A stretch of 52,702 bases of DNA, taken from positions 1 to 52,702 of the forward strand of contig CANQPW010000005.1 in assembly GCA_947625855.1 (NCBI GenBank). The letters are read 5' to 3'. This document shows positions 2,334 to 7,844 of the stretch, piece after piece. Numbering within the stretch: the stretch's first letter is position 1; every line of letters begins with the position of its first letter. A model generated the notes under the pieces. The model made no database searches. It worked only from the letters and a program-made list of their open reading frames with translations, and was not told where the DNA came from. This DNA is from an uncultured Clostridia bacterium (lineage in GTDB: Bacteria > Bacillota > Clostridia > TANB77 > CAG-465). The translations under genes were made by a program, and so were the position numbers.

Positions 2334-3428
2334 TTATTTTGAACTCATGCTATCTTTTACATCAACTAAAGCTCTATAAAACTCATTATCTTCTTCTGAT
2401 ATATCAATGTCATTTAAAAGTATTTTTAAATCATCAACATTTAATCCTTTTACTATAACGTTTCTAACAATCTTTTCAAGATCTATACCTTTTTTTCTCA
2501 TTTCATAAGCATATTCTATACCTCTCATTGAAAAAATTGCTTTAATACGATTTTTTCTCTGAGATTCCCGTAACTCCCAAAATACTTCTAAAATTTCTTT
2601 ATCAGGATAAAGGACTGCTTCTAAATCTTTATCATAATCAATTTCTTTTATAACATATCTATCAAGTGTTGCACCATCAAGTTTGTTTCTTCCAACATAT
2701 TCAATACTTCTACCATTTCCCCAAGTATTTGCAGTAGCAACAATTCTAAAATCTTTATGAACTTTTTGCTCACCACAAGGGAAACTATATACACCATTTC
2801 TAATAGCATCATTAACAGAAATAAGTGCAGAAGCTAATGAATTATCAATCTCATCTAAAATAAATAATCCGCCTCTTGTAAAAGCTTCATAAAAATCAGT
2901 AGATTGATACCTTCCAGAAGCATCAATAAATCCGATAAGTTTATACTCATCCTGGGGGCTATTACATCTATATACATCAAGATTTAATGCTTCAGCTACT
3001 TGAGTGAGCATAACATTTTTTCCAGTTCCAGCAGGTCCTGTTAAAAGTACAGGAATATTAAGGCTTACACACTCAAGGACATCTTCAAAATCTTTATGGA
3101 AAACGCCCTCAATCTTTTTAACTTCATTATTTCCAGAAATTATCTCAACATGTCTAAAAGGTATAGTAGCTGTATCAATTTTATCTTCGACTTGCTTTAA
3201 TAATTTAGGCATTAACCTTTCAATACTAAGTTTTATTAAATCATCTAATTTACCATTTTCAAAATATTCTTCATTAATTGTTTTATTAATAAAATTTAAA
3301 GTTAATGGTGACATGGAATCACGTAGTTTTTCAATCGTATCTTCCGAACTAACATATTCCTCCACTATTTTTAATAAATCATCCCTTAACTGCTCAACGA
3401 TATAAGCTTCAAGATTATTGCTAGCCAT
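2334..3428 (-). CDS. AAA+ ATPase, AAA_5 (CobS/MoxR-like) class, Walker A with Asn instead of Ser/Thr
   Basis: Walker A LLTGPAGTGKN, Walker B GGLFILDEID, sensor-1 RIVATANT, then GRNKLDGATLDRY (CobS/MoxR-type). RBS AAAAGGAGGAAAATTTT before the ATG. Confidence 0.85.
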   Translation of the reverse strand: MASNNLEAYIVEQLRDDLLKIVEEYVSSEDTIEKLRDSMSPLTLNFINKTINEEYFENGKLDDLIKLSIERLMPKLLKQVEDKIDTATIPFRHVEIISGNNEVKKIEGVFHKDFEDVLECVSLNIPVLLTGPAGTGKNVMLTQVAEALNLDVYRCNSPQDEYKLIGFIDASGRYQSTDFYEAFTRGGLFILDEIDNSLASALISVNDAIRNGVYSFPCGEQKVHKDFRIVATANTWGNGRSIEYVGRNKLDGATLDRYVIKEIDYDKDLEAVLYPDKEILEVFWELRESQRKNRIKAIFSMRGIEYAYEMRKKGIDLEKIVRNVIVKGLNVDDLKILLNDIDISEEDNEFYRALVDVKDSMSSK

Positions 3429-3491
3429 AAAATTTTCCTCCTTTTTATTTACTATACAATTATGTATGGCATAAAAAATAAATGCATAGCA

Positions 3492-3520
3492 ATTTTATCA
3501 CAATAGTACTTTTTTTTCAA
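3492..3520 (-). promoter_or_regulatory. Promoter of the AAA+ operon
   Basis: On the minus strand: TTGAAA, 17-nt spacer, TAAAAT preceded by TG (TGATAAAAT). Confidence 0.5.
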
Positions 3521-3538
3521 TAGTTTTATGTAAAATAC

Positions 3539-3566
3539 TTGACTTTTTTTTCATTTGTGATATAAT
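3539..3566 (+). promoter_or_regulatory. Promoter of the divergent 491-aa ORF
   Basis: TTGACT (3539-3544), 16-nt spacer, TATAAT (3561-3566) preceded by TG. Confidence 0.55.
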
Positions 3567-3649
3567 GCTTATGCATTATGATTTGAGTAACTACATAATT
3601 TTAGTTACGATTATATTTTAATTATATTTTAAAAAAGGAGGCCGGAAAT

Positions 3650-5125
3650 GTGTACAGCAAATTTTCTCGTATTTTAAGATTAAAGCCAATAGGAATACGA
3701 TTTTGGCCATATGGTGATCAAACACTAAAAATATTTAGTGCTCCAAAATTTTGGTCACAACATAAATATTATACTACTACTGGTTATCATTATGAGGTAA
3801 CCCTTATATCAAACGATAGCATTTCAATTAGCTTAGAAAGTACTTGTAGAAAAGGTTGTATTCATTTTAAACCTGCAACTCTTACATTAGATGATTTTTT
3901 AACACAATTAAAAGAAGCTGTAAAAGAAAATTCAAACTATATAACTCTTGCTATTGCGGTCACTTGTTGTTTTTCCTCTTGTGATACGTGTCTTTTGGAA
4001 AACGATAATTGTAAAAAAATGCGTAATAGTGCTTATGAATATCTTTTATCAATTTATTTTAACTATGAAGATATTATAAAAGCTTTAGATTATTATGAAA
4101 ATTTTGAAGAATACGAAATGGCAAAAAATCCATATAACACTTCTTATTCACAGGGTTCTATGATTTCTTCATATACACCAAAAAAAATTCAAAGAAAAAA
4201 GGAGAAAAGAGCTATGAAAAATCAAACCAACTTTTTGGGAATTCAGTGCGGTATGATTGATGATCCCAATGTAGCAGCAACAATGTTAGGCATATGCTTC
4301 AAGAACGAGGCCGGCAACTGGATTAAATTTGATCCCAACACCAAGCAGCGGACAGATATGTCAAATGTCCAGGTAGGGAACCTTGGGCCTCTGTACCTTA
4401 TTCCTTCAAGTAAAGTGGAAGTTGGAACGCCCATTTACTACGAGAACGAGTACTACTATGTAACGGACGCATCAAATCCCAACAAGCTTACCGTTCTTTC
4501 CGTTAAAGACGGCGTCGAGAAAACAGTTTATCCTGCTAAGAACCTCTTAGGCCTTAACTTCTATGCTAAAGTTGTTGCCTTAATTGATGCTGAGCAGCTG
4601 ATGGGTGGCGACAATGATGATCTGCTGGTTGTTATGGCTCTTAGCGGTGGCCTTAACAATGGTGGCGATAACGCCTTCAACCTTAGCTCCGATGGAAACG
4701 GTCTTAGCAACCTTTTCCTTTTATCCGCACTCAGTAATAATAAGGAAAACGGTCTTGGCGGTATGTTATCCGGCATCTTAGGAGATGGAGATAGTTCTTC
4801 TAATAAACTGCTTCCTTTACTCTTACTTTCTGGTGGCATGAACGGTCAGGGTGGAAACGGCTTTGACATGAATACATTGCTTATGTTAAGTATGCTTAAC
4901 AAGAAGTCTAGCGGATCTGGTAGCAACGAGGCAAGTGACAACAACAATAACTTAGTATATGCCTTAGAAGACATGATGGCAGCCAAGAAAGAACCCGAAA
5001 AATCGGCAGATACCCTTTCTAAGGATGATGTGGCAGCAATTGTCAAGGATACACTCAGATCAGAACTTAAGTCCATTGTAAAAGAAGTTATGGCTGAGAC
5101 CTCTGCTGACAGCACCAAAGAGTAA
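3650..5125 (+). CDS. Hypothetical 491-aa protein, compositional chimera: AT-rich Cys-rich N-terminal part plus GC-rich part with L/S/G/N-rich repeats
   Basis: GTG start 7 nt after AAGGAGG. Uninterrupted frame. An internal in-frame ATG at 4214 is preceded by AAGGAGA. GC rises from about 25% to about 50% after about 4240. A GC-rich hairpin terminator follows the stop. Confidence 0.7.
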   Translation: MYSKFSRILRLKPIGIRFWPYGDQTLKIFSAPKFWSQHKYYTTTGYHYEVTLISNDSISISLESTCRKGCIHFKPATLTLDDFLTQLKEAVKENSNYITLAIAVTCCFSSCDTCLLENDNCKKMRNSAYEYLLSIYFNYEDIIKALDYYENFEEYEMAKNPYNTSYSQGSMISSYTPKKIQRKKEKRAMKNQTNFLGIQCGMIDDPNVAATMLGICFKNEAGNWIKFDPNTKQRTDMSNVQVGNLGPLYLIPSSKVEVGTPIYYENEYYYVTDASNPNKLTVLSVKDGVEKTVYPAKNLLGLNFYAKVVALIDAEQLMGGDNDDLLVVMALSGGLNNGGDNAFNLSSDGNGLSNLFLLSALSNNKENGLGGMLSGILGDGDSSSNKLLPLLLLSGGMNGQGGNGFDMNTLLMLSMLNKKSSGSGSNEASDNNNNLVYALEDMMAAKKEPEKSADTLSKDDVAAIVKDTLRSELKSIVKEVMAETSADSTKE

Positions 5126-5156
5126 TACTAACAATAAACAACAATAAACAAATTTT

Positions 5157-5192
5157 GGCTTGGTGCTTTAATTTAGCACCAAGCCTTTCTTT
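5157..5192 (+). terminator. Rho-independent terminator of the 491-aa ORF
   Basis: GGCTTGGTGCT-TTAATTT-AGCACCAAGCC perfect 11-bp stem followed by TTTCTTT. Confidence 0.75.
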
Positions 5193-5203
5193 GGAGGTAT
5201 AAT

Positions 5204-5410
5204 ATGTCAAGTATATCATTTAGGAAACGGATAAAAATAGATGATACTACGACCTTAAACATCAGTAAAAAGGGTTTTTCGATTAGTAAAAAAGTAGGAA
5301 ATACGACTGTAAATTCAAGAGGAACTGTTACTACAAATCTTGGAAACGGTATAATTTTAAGAGATTCATTAAAACCAAAAACAACTAAAAAAAATTCAAA
5401 AAATAAGTAG
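5204..5410 (+). CDS. DUF4236-like small protein (68 aa)
   Basis: GGAGGTATAAT precedes the ATG. The translation FRKRIKI...LNISKKGFSISKKVGNTTVNSRGTVTTNLGNG matches the recalled DUF4236 pattern (RKSxK...LNxSKxGxSxS...G). Confidence 0.7.
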   Translation: MSSISFRKRIKIDDTTTLNISKKGFSISKKVGNTTVNSRGTVTTNLGNGIILRDSLKPKTTKKNSKNK

Positions 5411-5425
5411 AGCAAAACTCTACTT
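5405..5425. terminator. Bidirectional hairpin terminator between convergent genes
   Basis: AAGTAGAG-CAAAA-CTCTACTT with T-rich flanks on both strands. Confidence 0.55.
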
Positions 5426-5431
5426 ATTTAT

Positions 5432-7000
5432 TTACTCATTAAACCCGAGTATTTTTCCTGATTTAAAATTATAATATCCATCTTCTAATTCTATTAAATC
5501 AAGTTCATCATCTCTACCAACATAATCTTTTATGTTATATTCAAATGAAACATTACCATTTTTTGCATTATATATTGTATATTTTTCATCATTTCTAACA
5601 ATTAAATAATTGTCATCATAGTATTCTTTATACGCATTTTCAATATTTGATATTAAGTTTCCTTTTAAATCATATAGTTTAATAATTTTATCATTTGAAT
5701 TTTCAACTATAATATAACTATCAGATATAACATTATCTCCTCTTTGTAAAGGAATTTTTTTATTTTCATTTATAAAAATATAATCATTTGTAGCACTCTC
5801 ATCTTGAATTGTAACTACCAAAGTTTCACCATAATATGTATAATTAGAAACTCCCTCTAATACCAATTTACCTTTCAAATTATATACATCATATTTTCCT
5901 TTTTCTAAACTTTCAGCAACTATATAATCTAATTTATTATTTCCAGGAGCTACAAAAAAATGATTTTCTATTTTATTTATTAAACCTCTCCTGTTATATA
6001 ATTCCAAATTATCAGCATCAGATATTACAAAATATATATTATTATTTGAATCTAGTAATAATTCAATTTCATTTTCAGAAGTAAATATTTTATTATAATT
6101 TGAATCATAAATAGTATACTTATCTTCTCTTTTTCCATCAACTAATGACATTTGAGTTAAAATCATATATTTACCATATTTATTATTTGCTGATACAGAA
6201 GTACAATTTGAAGTATCAATAGTATCTTTAACACTCATATCCTTGTTATATATTACAACTTCATTTTCTTTAATTTGAATATTATAATTAAAAGTTAGGT
6301 TTTCTACATTTTCAAATAATTCTTCTCCACTTGTTAAATCAAAATATCTATTTTTACCATTTTCATTAACATTAATCACAGTATCATAACTATTATCAAA
6401 TTTATCAAAATAATATATATCATTCTCATTTAGCTCATTACTAGCTGTAAATAATATTTTTCCATCTTCATTTATATAACTGTAATCTTCATTTTCTCCA
6501 ACAAATAATATATCAGATGTCTCATCATTGGATAATATTGAAATATATTCATATTCAACAGGTATAACTTCATTTCCACTATAATCTATAACACCATATT
6601 TGTTCTCCTTTTCAACGCTATAATACTTTCCATTTGCTAATTGTGTTATGCTGTTATATACCCCATAATCTATTATAACCTTCTCATTTTTATTAATTAA
6701 TGCATGTTCTAAATAATTTGGATTATCTGTAAGAGCCTTACTAACGCAAGTAGTATCATAATAAAAATCACTCATATCTGAATATCCAGTATATTTTAAA
6801 ACTTTATTATTTCTTGTTATATATGTAAAATCTCCATTTTCACTTTTCACTAATTTTGCATATCCAACTATAACTTCTTCTTCTTTTTCATCATCATTTT
6901 TACTAAATATATTAGTACATATAAATATTGCTACAATTAATACAACTACTATAATGCAAATTAATGCATATTTTATCAAATTATTCTTGTTGTTTTCCAT
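5432..7000 (-). CDS. Membrane-anchored protein with WG-type (KWG-like) beta-repeats
   Basis: N-terminal TM helix (LIKYALICIIVVVLIVAIFI). Repeats of the type NKYGVIDYSGNEVIPVEYEYI. Confidence 0.75.
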   Translation of the reverse strand: MENNKNNLIKYALICIIVVVLIVAIFICTNIFSKNDDEKEEEVIVGYAKLVKSENGDFTYITRNNKVLKYTGYSDMSDFYYDTTCVSKALTDNPNYLEHALINKNEKVIIDYGVYNSITQLANGKYYSVEKENKYGVIDYSGNEVIPVEYEYISILSNDETSDILFVGENEDYSYINEDGKILFTASNELNENDIYYFDKFDNSYDTVINVNENGKNRYFDLTSGEELFENVENLTFNYNIQIKENEVVIYNKDMSVKDTIDTSNCTSVSANNKYGKYMILTQMSLVDGKREDKYTIYDSNYNKIFTSENEIELLLDSNNNIYFVISDADNLELYNRRGLINKIENHFFVAPGNNKLDYIVAESLEKGKYDVYNLKGKLVLEGVSNYTYYGETLVVTIQDESATNDYIFINENKKIPLQRGDNVISDSYIIVENSNDKIIKLYDLKGNLISNIENAYKEYYDDNYLIVRNDEKYTIYNAKNGNVSFEYNIKDYVGRDDELDLIELEDGYYNFKSGKILGFNE

Positions 7001-7091: not shown

Positions 7092-7844
7092 TTATATATT
7101 TACTTTTATTTTAGCCATATCTGAATATACAATATAACAATTATTATCATTTTTCATTTTTTGGAAACATAATGTTCCAGTTACACTTTCGCCAACTTCT
7201 AATAATTTGCTGTCAAGAGTTGCCTCTTTATATGTATAATCAATCATAGGATCATAATCTTCTCCATATCTATCTACTAATGAGAAGTCATATTTACTTA
7301 TATATGTAGGAGTATCATCAGTATTTTTTATTGTAATTGTTACCATTACAAGCTCATAATCATTATTATATGCTTGTAAATTTTCACTGCCTTTATATCT
7401 TTCTATTTTATCTATTGTTACTGTACTATAATTATCTTTGATTTCCTTTCCTATACTATATTCTTTTAGTCTTGAAATATCATCATCATCGTCATAATCA
7501 TAGTCGTAATCGTAATCATTATCATAGTCATAATCATCATAATAATCATCATAATCATCAAATATTTCATTTCTTATGCCGTTTGTTATAATATTTTTAC
7601 TTACACTTCCTACAAATGCAAAAACAAAAATTAATACTATTGCTAATATCATACTTAATCCAGATGTTACTATACCAACTATTGGCATAGCTTTATTATT
7701 TTTTCCTCTAGATTTCATTGTAGCAAGTGAAACAATACCAAGAATTATTCCTACTATTGCAGGTACATATGCAAACATACCAATAAATGGTATAAAAGAA
7801 ATTACAATTGCAATAATTCCTAAAACTAAAGATGCTACTTCCAT
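7092..7844 (-). CDS. Membrane protein with a D/Y low-complexity linker and a DUF4352-like extracellular domain
   Basis: Two or three N-terminal TM helices, the linker DDYDDYYDDYDYDNDYDYDYDYDDDDD, and a C-terminal beta-rich domain (ELVMVTITIKN...FSLVDRYGEDYDP...GESVTGTLCF). Confidence 0.75.
   Translation of the reverse strand: MEVASLVLGIIAIVISFIPFIGMFAYVPAIVGIILGIVSLATMKSRGKNNKAMPIVGIVTSGLSMILAIVLIFVFAFVGSVSKNIITNGIRNEIFDDYDDYYDDYDYDNDYDYDYDYDDDDDISRLKEYSIGKEIKDNYSTVTIDKIERYKGSENLQAYNNDYELVMVTITIKNTDDTPTYISKYDFSLVDRYGEDYDPMIDYTYKEATLDSKLLEVGESVTGTLCFQKMKNDNNCYIVYSDMAKIKVNI

Follow-up and report, generated by a model that had tools for sequence, protein, structure and literature searches.

A step in synonymous composition at a probable internal start codon in a gene family of gut Clostridia and large phages

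Why should the codons of one bacterial gene change their composition abruptly within its reading frame? A sudden intragenic change in guanine-plus-cytosine (GC) content is usually read as the trace of a gene transfer or of a mis-assembly. The question is raised by an open reading frame (ORF) at positions 3650–5125 (+ strand) of contig CANQPW010000005.1 (assembly GCA_947625855.1), from an uncultured Clostridia bacterium, of which the whole 52,702-nucleotide stretch analysed is here called the window. The ORF begins with GTG and encodes 491 amino acids; its first 188 codons (the N part) are AT-rich, and the remainder (the C part) is the most GC-rich DNA of the window. An earlier note on this DNA took the C part for a formerly independent gene from a higher-GC donor, now fused to an AT-rich ORF. 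Both of the usual readings fail here, which becomes visible only when relatives are compared. In our judgement the chances are about even that the ORF is one nested gene with two translation starts, yielding a long form of 491 and a short form of 303 amino acids, and that selection maintains the GC-rich codons within the short-form frame. The elements of the gene are the following.

3539–3566, + strand: candidate sigma-70-type promoter (TTGACT, 16-nt spacer, TG, TATAAT)
3635–3652, + strand: Shine-Dalgarno sequence AAGGAGG (3636–3642) and GTG start (3650) of the long, 491-amino-acid form
3650–4213, + strand: N part, 188 codons, GC 27.8%, third-position GC 0.14
4199–4216, + strand: internal Shine-Dalgarno sequence AAGGAGA (4199–4205), 8-nt spacer and in-frame ATG (4214, codon 189)
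4214–4590, + strand: conserved core of the C part, predicted as two small beta-barrels in tandem, the family signature
4237–5117, + strand: GC-rich stretch between the two change-points, about 44% GC, third-position GC about 0.46
4622–4927, + strand: four repeats of a short hydrophobic helix (Leu/Met/Ser) and then a Gly/Asn/Asp spacer
5021–5107, + strand: C-terminal charged helix, amino acids 458–486 (helix 270–298 of the C part)
5157–5185, + strand: intrinsic terminator, 11-bp stem with 7 G-C pairs, 7-nt loop, TTTCTTT tail

The GC content is 27.8% at 3650–4213, 43.4% at 4214–5125 and 26.7% over the whole window. Maximum-likelihood change-points place the rise at 4237 and the fall at 5117, with the stop codon at 5123–5125, so the earlier note had located the switch correctly (near 4240, ending at the stop), and its three hand counts of 15/60, 29/60 and 30/60 are exact. 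It had also put the last 0.9 kb of the ORF at about 50% GC; the GC-rich stretch is indeed there, but its mean is about 44%, and 50% is reached solely in the peak 90–120-bp windows of the C part. The GC maximum of the entire 52.7 kb is an 886-bp stretch from 4231 (44.0%), the runner-up elsewhere reaching 34.8%.

The step is largely one of synonymous codon choice. Third-position GC rises from 0.144 (N part) to 0.462 (C part), against 0.11 and 0.13 as calculated from amino-acid content and the codon usage of the window; the total GC expected on the same basis is 0.26 and 0.31. Amino-acid content accounts for about 5 points of the GC step and codon choice for the remainder. All 49 other ORFs of at least 120 amino acids in the window have third-position GC of 0.07–0.22, and the best two-segment split of this quantity, computed without Met and Trp codons, is 0.32 at codon 183 of the ORF as against 0.11 or less in the 22 other window ORFs of at least 250 codons. 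Every codon class takes part in the shift from N to C part: the C-ending share of two-fold pyrimidine codons goes from 0.13 to 0.55, the G-ending share of two-fold purine codons from 0.14 to 0.56, the G- or C-ending share of four-fold codons from 0.13 to 0.39, and TTA from 8 of 15 to 11 of 40 Leu codons. The three sections of the C part are similar in this respect (third-position GC 0.49 in the core, 0.44 in the repeat region and 0.42 in the tail). The step starts at the internal start and finishes at the stop codon, which are the limits of the short-form reading frame.

This internal start had been pointed out in the earlier note, and ATG 4214 does carry its own AAGGAGA at 4199–4205, eight nucleotides upstream; it is the proposed start of the 303-amino-acid form. 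The GTG at 3650 aligns with Met1 of the homologues described below. A second Shine-Dalgarno sequence and start in the same frame is the arrangement by which in-frame nested genes are recognised, and the gene probably makes both a long and a short protein. Across nine chromosomal genomes the long form starts with GTG (the window), TTG (five genomes) or ATG (three genomes), and is thus non-ATG in six of nine, while the internal start is ATG in all nine; we infer that the short form would be the more abundant and the long form rare. Upstream, the promoter candidate has 11 of 12 consensus matches with an extended -10 element and is the top site in 3300–5500, on consensus matching only. Downstream, the terminator stem is GC-rich, as had been noted, and a weak Rfam match to tmRNA at 5136–5184 (12.7 bits, compared with a gathering score of 47) falls on its hairpin and was taken as chance.

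A search of 5.8 billion protein clusters returned seven full-length homologues of the two-part protein (467–492 amino acids, 47–54% identity), and a scan of one genome per species found it in three metagenome-assembled genomes only, each labelled 'uncultured Clostridia bacterium' and one of them from a mouse gut catalogue. The chromosomal relatives compared with the window comprise six syntenic loci (L001, L003, L004, L009, L011 and L012) and two distant ones (L018 and L017). In seven genomes, each assembled independently, the same N-plus-C protein is encoded at one and the same place in the chromosome, within a shared gene order of SecDF, a DUF4352 protein, a protein of about 520 amino acids, sometimes a GH25 hydrolase, DUF4236, the two-part gene, a divergent AAA_5 ATPase and DUF7192. 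Relative to the window copies, SecD is 76–81% identical, and the ATPase, DUF7192 and the two-part gene are each about 45–55% identical. Identity at four-fold sites, in the ATPase gene as in both parts of the two-part gene, is about the value for independent sequences, and synonymous sites are therefore at or near saturation.

Through this divergence the step persists. It lies at the same internal ATG in every homologue, with third-position GC in the C part of 0.27–0.46 as against 0.11–0.23 expected, and among the Clostridia homologues the rise begins in the 30-codon block that holds the internal ATG. It is kept in L018 at 30% identity, where the ATPase and DUF4236 are neighbours as in the window, and in L017 at 25% identity, in a context of 38% GC. 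By a rough estimate that takes about 0.1 as the equilibrium third-position GC, neutral decay would erase the excess long before sites had undergone, on average, a single synonymous substitution. Since the step has survived saturated synonymous divergence, it is maintained rather than passively inherited.

These comparisons bear directly on the proposal of a recent fusion between a native AT-rich ORF and a gene acquired from a donor of higher GC, the step being foreign DNA that has not yet ameliorated. By atypical composition, one of the marks of recent transfer, the C part stands out clearly (0.46 against 0.07–0.22 in the other ORFs) and looks foreign in every codon class; the C module is moreover separable, having its own Shine-Dalgarno sequence and ATG and being joined within its family to unrelated or near-absent N extensions, and its phage copies have third-position GC of 0.3–0.7. 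A recent arrival should, however, be absent or of normal composition in relatives, with a phylogeny that conflicts with its flanks, and the seven related genomes present the opposite picture, the same fusion, step and locus recurring where synonymous sites are saturated, and the step recurring also in homologues at 25–30% identity. The identity matrices of N part, core and tail are mutually consistent among the Clostridia genomes and agree with the flanks, by which transfer between lineages is rejected, and among about 15 billion proteins no relative of the C part was found outside the clade that is closer than those within it. A possible stand-alone close relative, P0013, was discarded because it lies at a contig end. 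The fusion is old and, in the Clostridia clade, vertically inherited. What survives of the proposal is the separable module with its own start; a recent import is contradicted and a donor of higher GC need not be assumed, and we regard the proposal as improbable, also in the form of an ancient import whose composition decays very slowly. The earlier note had itself named uniform composition in related two-part proteins as an outcome that would count against it, and the homologues turn out to be two-part and equally non-uniform, so that the step is a maintained property of the family and not the fading trace of a transfer.

A chimeric assembly joining two fragments near 4200–4240 would be the other conventional explanation, and the change is indeed abrupt and falls in a low-complexity, A-rich stretch. 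Nine or more separate assemblies, drawn from NCBI metagenome-assembled genomes, Logan, ENA and JGI, nevertheless share the identical junction with the in-frame motif SSYNK.EKE.K.M, which excludes a chimera and leaves that explanation a negligible probability.

One pair of relatives departs from the general saturation: the C parts of L001 and L012 agree at 29 of 51 four-fold sites (0.57, with 0.27 expected) despite having the lowest protein identity of the set, the other pairs being at expectation. This excess could reflect shared codon-family preferences or a site-specific constraint.

The internal start site is itself conserved. Of the nine chromosomal homologues, eight have AAGGAGA followed after 7–9 nt by ATG, as does gp39 of Bacillus phage G; in the ninth, L017, a motif search gave no AAGGAGA-ATG site. 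AAG and GAG each make up only about 14–16% of the Lys and Glu codons of the source genome, and AAG-GAG is kept at the internal site in the same proportion of the chromosomal homologues (8/9) and in phage G despite saturated synonymous sites. The nucleotides of the site are thus conserved to a greater degree than the encoded residues require. At the protein level, the internal Met is at least 90% conserved among 45 diverse family members and is preceded by residues rich in Lys and Glu, and it is here that another account has to be weighed, in which only the long protein is made and the K-E-K-E...M sequence is a linker or cleavage motif with an incidental likeness to a Shine-Dalgarno sequence. 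Lys/Glu-rich linkers are common, the motif is conserved as protein across the family, and the long ORF is always open. Opposed to this are the use of the rare AAG and GAG codons at saturated sites, the spacing to the ATG, which is always 7–9 nt, the frequent choice of the internal ATG by gene callers on phage contigs, and the existence of family members nearly without an upstream in-frame ORF. On balance, it is unlikely that the long protein is the sole product.

Is the step peculiar to these Clostridia? Neither half of the protein has a match in Pfam, PHROG, NCBIfam or PADLOC, and the statement of the earlier note that no family could be recognised holds for such curated libraries. It does not hold beyond them, as the family is large: an exhaustive profile search gave 1,425 clusters at E ≤1e-3 and 1,088 at E ≤1e-10, the region common to them being profile positions of about 160–360, that is, the end of the linker and the core. 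A tblastn search matched phage G gp39 (E 2e-6), and in IMG/VR a scan established 133 loci, whose viral contigs mostly measure 80–400 kb. The N extensions of the family form at least 15 BLAST groups; the N part described here has no homology to the main phage group (hhalign probability 0.3%), and the N domain of the Clostridia clade appears, from its sequence, to be lineage-specific. Fewer than 60 in-frame codons lie upstream of the core in 5 of 30 sequence clusters. As far as sequence comparison can tell, this is an unnamed family typical of large phages and nearly always provided with a variable in-frame N extension.

The long form seems to be easily overlooked. Three genes called as stand-alone proteins of about 200 amino acids (L013–L015) have about 120–198 open in-frame codons upstream that were not called. 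These upstream regions (L013 9407–10000, L014 9641–10000 and L015 9416–10000) are AT-rich and share a W-[KR]-x-L-[KR] motif, and those of L013 and L014 open with a GTG preceded by a Shine-Dalgarno sequence. Gene callers often choose the internal ATG as the start on phage contigs and so miss the GTG or TTG of the long form, and many family members are therefore probably annotated too short.

The phage members allow the step to be examined across genomes. For this comparison each gene was set against local codon usage and third-position GC was computed without Met and Trp codons, because ATG inflates the raw value in Met-rich phage tails. Core plus tail exceed local expectation by 0.11, with an excess in 89% of 71 distinct phage loci, while N extensions of at least 60 codons lie 0.07 below it; the core is above the extension in 52 of 52 loci. 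When the loci are collapsed to 30 clusters at 60% core identity, the same holds in all 25 clusters that have extensions (Wilcoxon p 4.5e-5), and the excess rises with extension length (Spearman 0.61). The step tracks extensions across genomes; it thus follows the two-start architecture and is not tied to a particular genome.

Several kinds of selection or bias could in principle produce such a pattern. High-expression codon bias was considered and rejected. In the genes for ribosomal proteins and EF-Ts, third-position GC is 0.075 and the shifts in codon use show no correlation with those seen in the C part (rho -0.03); the C part favours just the G-ending and rare codons avoided in such genes. 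The presence of rare codons suggests another possibility, namely that they slow or limit translation of the C module, whether for folding or assembly, to keep a harmful product low or through dependence on phage tRNAs. The C part is rich in CCC, ACC, GCC, CTG, CTC, CGG and TCC, each of which makes up 0–3% of its codon family; the limits of the stretch coincide with the short-form reading frame; and the family resides in large phages, which often carry tRNA genes. The step is present, however, in phage genomes of 35–45% GC where those codons are not rare, and since NNC and NNT usually share one tRNA in small AT-rich genomes, the effect on speed may be small. We consider translation-linked selection of this kind rather unlikely.

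A process acting on DNA would enrich all codon classes alike, as is observed, and GC-biased gene conversion could be such a process if the C module recombined often under biased repair while the fast-diverging N part could not and drifted towards AT. That N extensions lie below and the core above local expectation, and that the core is the best-conserved segment, would agree with this. Yet the tail, at 30–37% amino-acid identity, is as GC-rich as the core, the limits of the stretch are those of a translation unit (internal start and stop codon), exchange between lineages has left no sign, and highly conserved genes of the same genome are not GC-rich. Gene conversion is, in our view, quite unlikely to be the cause.

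In AT-rich genomes an island of high GC is often an RNA gene, and a second function of the GC-rich DNA, as a structured RNA or an overlapping gene in antisense or another frame, was therefore also weighed; one antisense frame contains ORFs of 63, 92 and 90 amino acids. This frame is broken by 15 stops (11 TTA and 4 TCA codons), there is no Rfam match in 3000–6000 at E ≤1 save weak chance matches outside the stretch, synonymous sites are not conserved between homologues, and folding energy shows no excess over codon-shuffled controls. Such a hidden function is very improbable.

We thus return to the nested gene with two starts, and ask how composition might serve it. The weak upstream GTG would yield the 491-amino-acid form, consisting of a four-Cys N domain and the C module, and the internal AAGGAGA-N8-ATG (4199–4216) would yield the 303-amino-acid form, the C module alone. 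The AT-rich N segment of the mRNA would be readily cleaved and degraded. The processed short-form mRNA would owe its stability to a ribosome on the strong internal Shine-Dalgarno sequence, to its GC-rich body and to the terminator hairpin, and a high ratio of short to long form would result. In Firmicutes, RNase Y cleaves AU-rich single-stranded RNA, and RNase J1 degrades from the 5' end until it meets a ribosome on a strong Shine-Dalgarno sequence, the leader 'stabilisers' of cryIIIA and aprE being established examples of such a block. Differential mRNA stability is the mechanism of the step that we favour, tentatively, although we think it less likely than not, and it is the most speculative step of the argument. 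Whether the change of codon composition at the internal start is a conserved design that sets the ratio of long to short form, for instance by differential decay of the two mRNA halves, is doubtful to a similar or greater degree; such a switch would act in large phages as well as in the chromosomal copies of gut Clostridia.

A number of observations weigh against selection on a two-start gene or weaken its support. The folding of synonymous-codon shuffles gives Z-scores of -0.9 to -2.5 that are alike in N and C parts, and a sequence scan of 3300–5500 found no clear internal promoter. The conserved K-E-K-E...M may, as discussed, be a protein-level linker motif that merely resembles a Shine-Dalgarno sequence. 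Substitutions polarised in the single close trio (L004, L011 and L003), an analysis prone to parsimony bias, number 26 from AT to GC and 9 from GC to AT in the C part but also 12 and 4 in the N part, a pattern that is probably a parsimony artefact in AT-rich DNA. The five phage clusters with short or no extension have an excess of 0.03 as opposed to 0.12 (Mann-Whitney p 0.011), a contrast that is weak with n=5. Phylogenetic clustering of the phage loci brings the 52 down to something nearer 15–25 independent observations. Finally, the functional reading given below draws on gene neighbourhood only.

In-frame nested genes with internal starts are well known, among them lambda C/Nu3, phiX174 A/A*, Bacillus subtilis SafA/C30, ClpB and IF2. 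The gene described here resembles them in its second in-frame Shine-Dalgarno sequence and ATG and in the predicted pair of full-length and N-terminally shortened proteins with a common C terminus, and differs from them in the family-wide change of synonymous composition at the internal start. We know of no described case in which an internal start coincides with a conserved, family-wide change of this kind, and a literature search on codon shifts at internal starts found none, so that the conserved composition switch is, as far as we know, apparently new. A different precedent is the insect gene oskar, which is reported to be a chimeric gene recognised by differences in codon usage between its domains (PMC7250577). 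As in oskar, two domains of one ORF differ in third-position GC, the basis for inferring separate origins and the reasoning that the earlier note followed. Unlike in oskar, the difference has been kept over deep divergence and reappears beside N domains of unrelated sequence, and it cannot therefore be read simply as a transfer trace. If the step is selected, synonymous composition would be tunable separately for two nested products of one gene, with consequences for the understanding of isoform ratios in bacteria and phages and of what maintains GC at synonymous sites.

What kind of protein the two starts would deliver was approached through structure prediction. A first AlphaFold model drew on 10 sequences and resolved the C part poorly, and its structure search of the PDB gave nothing significant. 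With 110 sequences the core is predicted with high confidence (predicted local distance difference test score, pLDDT, above 90 for residues 10–125 of the C part). This second model has no PDB match below E 1e-3, its best likenesses being weak ones to SH3, Tudor and eIF5A-N barrels, all at E >0.08, and a sequence profile search of the PDB found nothing. In the viral structure library BFVD, Foldseek matched phage G Gp39 at E 7.6e-11 and four more phage proteins at E ≤2e-7; the top matches, with E between 1e-7 and 1e-11, are to Gp39 and to proteins of uncultured phages. Core sequence similarity and predicted fold both place the gene in the phage G gp39-like family. The two genes have in common the core fold and sequence family, an N extension, the internal AAGGAGA-N8-ATG and a hydrophobic, Gly/Asn/Gln-containing tail; gp39 differs in its core identity of about 32%, its unrelated N extension and its phage-borne rather than chromosomal location, and has no ATPase or DUF7192 within the 9 kb inspected on either side. 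A family of at least 1,400 clusters, common in phages of 80–400 kb and linked in some gut Clostridia to a MoxR-type ATPase, is without a name or a solved structure.

The core is 68–76% identical within the clade and the tail poorly conserved (30–37%). Within the tail, the four hydrophobic Leu/Ser blocks of the earlier note, each with its Gly/Asn block, were located at amino acids 325–341, 355–371, 387–404 and 410–426; their short helices are predicted at low confidence, and equivalent blocks, such as NPFGNMLPFLMMG and NPMMMYFLL, are seen throughout the family. The charged helix-like end described there is likewise predicted as a helix, at amino acids 458–486 (pLDDT about 94). The repeated short hydrophobic helices suggest self-association or association with membranes. 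The N part is, as the same note described, an AT-rich segment of 188 codons that carries cysteines (7 Cys in 188 residues). It comprises an alpha/beta domain of about amino acids 1–160, predicted with moderate confidence (pLDDT about 60–90), and a linker ending in KKEKRA; C66, C111, C114 and C121 are invariant in 10 homologues. Zinc ribbons occur in 6 of 45 sampled family members, and the homologue in L017 (306–1967) ends in four double zinc ribbons.

The neighbouring genes of the window that recur with the two-part gene include the following.

1429–2322, - strand: DUF7192 protein (PF23822 9e-28; phrog_1909 3e-29), downstream of the ATPase in the same operon
2334–3428, - strand: MoxR/CobS-class AAA+ ATPase (AAA_5; PF07728 1e-11; phrog_249 1.4e-51), divergent from the two-part gene
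5204–5410, + strand: DUF4236 small protein of 68 amino acids (PF14020 E 2.9e-7), a conserved downstream partner

Divergent transcription from an AAA+ operon, reported in the earlier note together with the idea that the protein could be a client or effector of it, proves to be a conserved feature, the ATPase being a neighbour in all syntenic genomes and next to the 30%-identity homologue. The divergent ATPase-DUF7192 pair is found in L001, L003, L004, L009 and the window; in L018 the ATPase is present and the gene beyond it, cut by the contig end, has no Pfam record. The gene immediately after the homologue encodes the DUF4236 protein in L001, L003, L004, L009 and L018. The closest solved structures of the ATPase are CbbQ/NorQ and CobS, and the locus is comparable to CbbQ/CbbO, NorQ/NorD, CobS/CobT and GvpN in combining, in conserved synteny, a MoxR-class ATPase, a second conserved protein (DUF7192) and an adjoining candidate client. 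It is unlike them in that DUF7192 has no detected von Willebrand A domain or solved relative and in that the link to the client is inferred from neighbourhood. Conserved linkage to both the ATPase and its partner is what a client of a MoxR ATPase would display, and our guess, from gene neighbourhood only, is that the ATPase-DUF7192 pair assembles or remodels the C module as a self- or membrane-associating module. The phage copies L013–L015 and phage G have no ATPase within 8–10 kb on either side. PADLOC gave no match for the two-part gene, DUF7192 or DUF4236 and a chance-level P-loop match for the ATPase, so that no known anti-phage defence system was recognised, and the literature on DUF7192, DUF4236 and phage G gp39 yielded nothing relevant.

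The ATPase-DUF7192 pair occurs also in Staphylococcus phage K (L020, 19446–20887) and 235 related records; the phage K ATPase is CobS-like, is annotated 'porphyrin biosynthesis' and adjoins the DUF7192 homologue. The pair is thus also a phage module. Around the phage members of the two-part family, other genes recur: a protein of about 518 amino acids with a Cys-rich C terminus (phrog_18912) is encoded no more than five genes downstream at 53 of the 80 phage loci, 34 of which have its gene immediately after the family member, and proteins of 138 and 258 amino acids also recur downstream. These three look like a conserved module. The phage neighbours of about 518, 258, 138 and 239 amino acids have no annotation except an M28-like peptidase, and this context gave no functional lead.

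Some further features of the locus may be recorded. The - strand carries 45 of the 50 long ORFs of the window, in which GC skew is steadily negative; ORF 3650–5125 and the DUF4236 gene are among the few on the + strand and therefore both probably meet the replication fork head-on. A second DUF4236 protein, in L009 (188–904), is fused to zinc ribbons. A GH25 muramidase with LysM repeats lies between DUF4236 and the protein of about 520 amino acids in L001 (10171–11397), L003 (10163–11383) and L004 (9057–10277); it is missing from the window (5411–5431) and from L009. In the window the protein following this gap (5432–7000, - strand) has 522 amino acids, WG-containing beta repeats and an N-terminal membrane anchor, and is 42–49% identical in all relatives. 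Beyond it, at 7092–7844 (- strand), the DUF4190/DUF4352 membrane protein, whose synteny is conserved, carries an Asp/Tyr run (DDYDDYYDDYDYDNDYDYDYDYDDDDD) between its membrane and extracellular parts.

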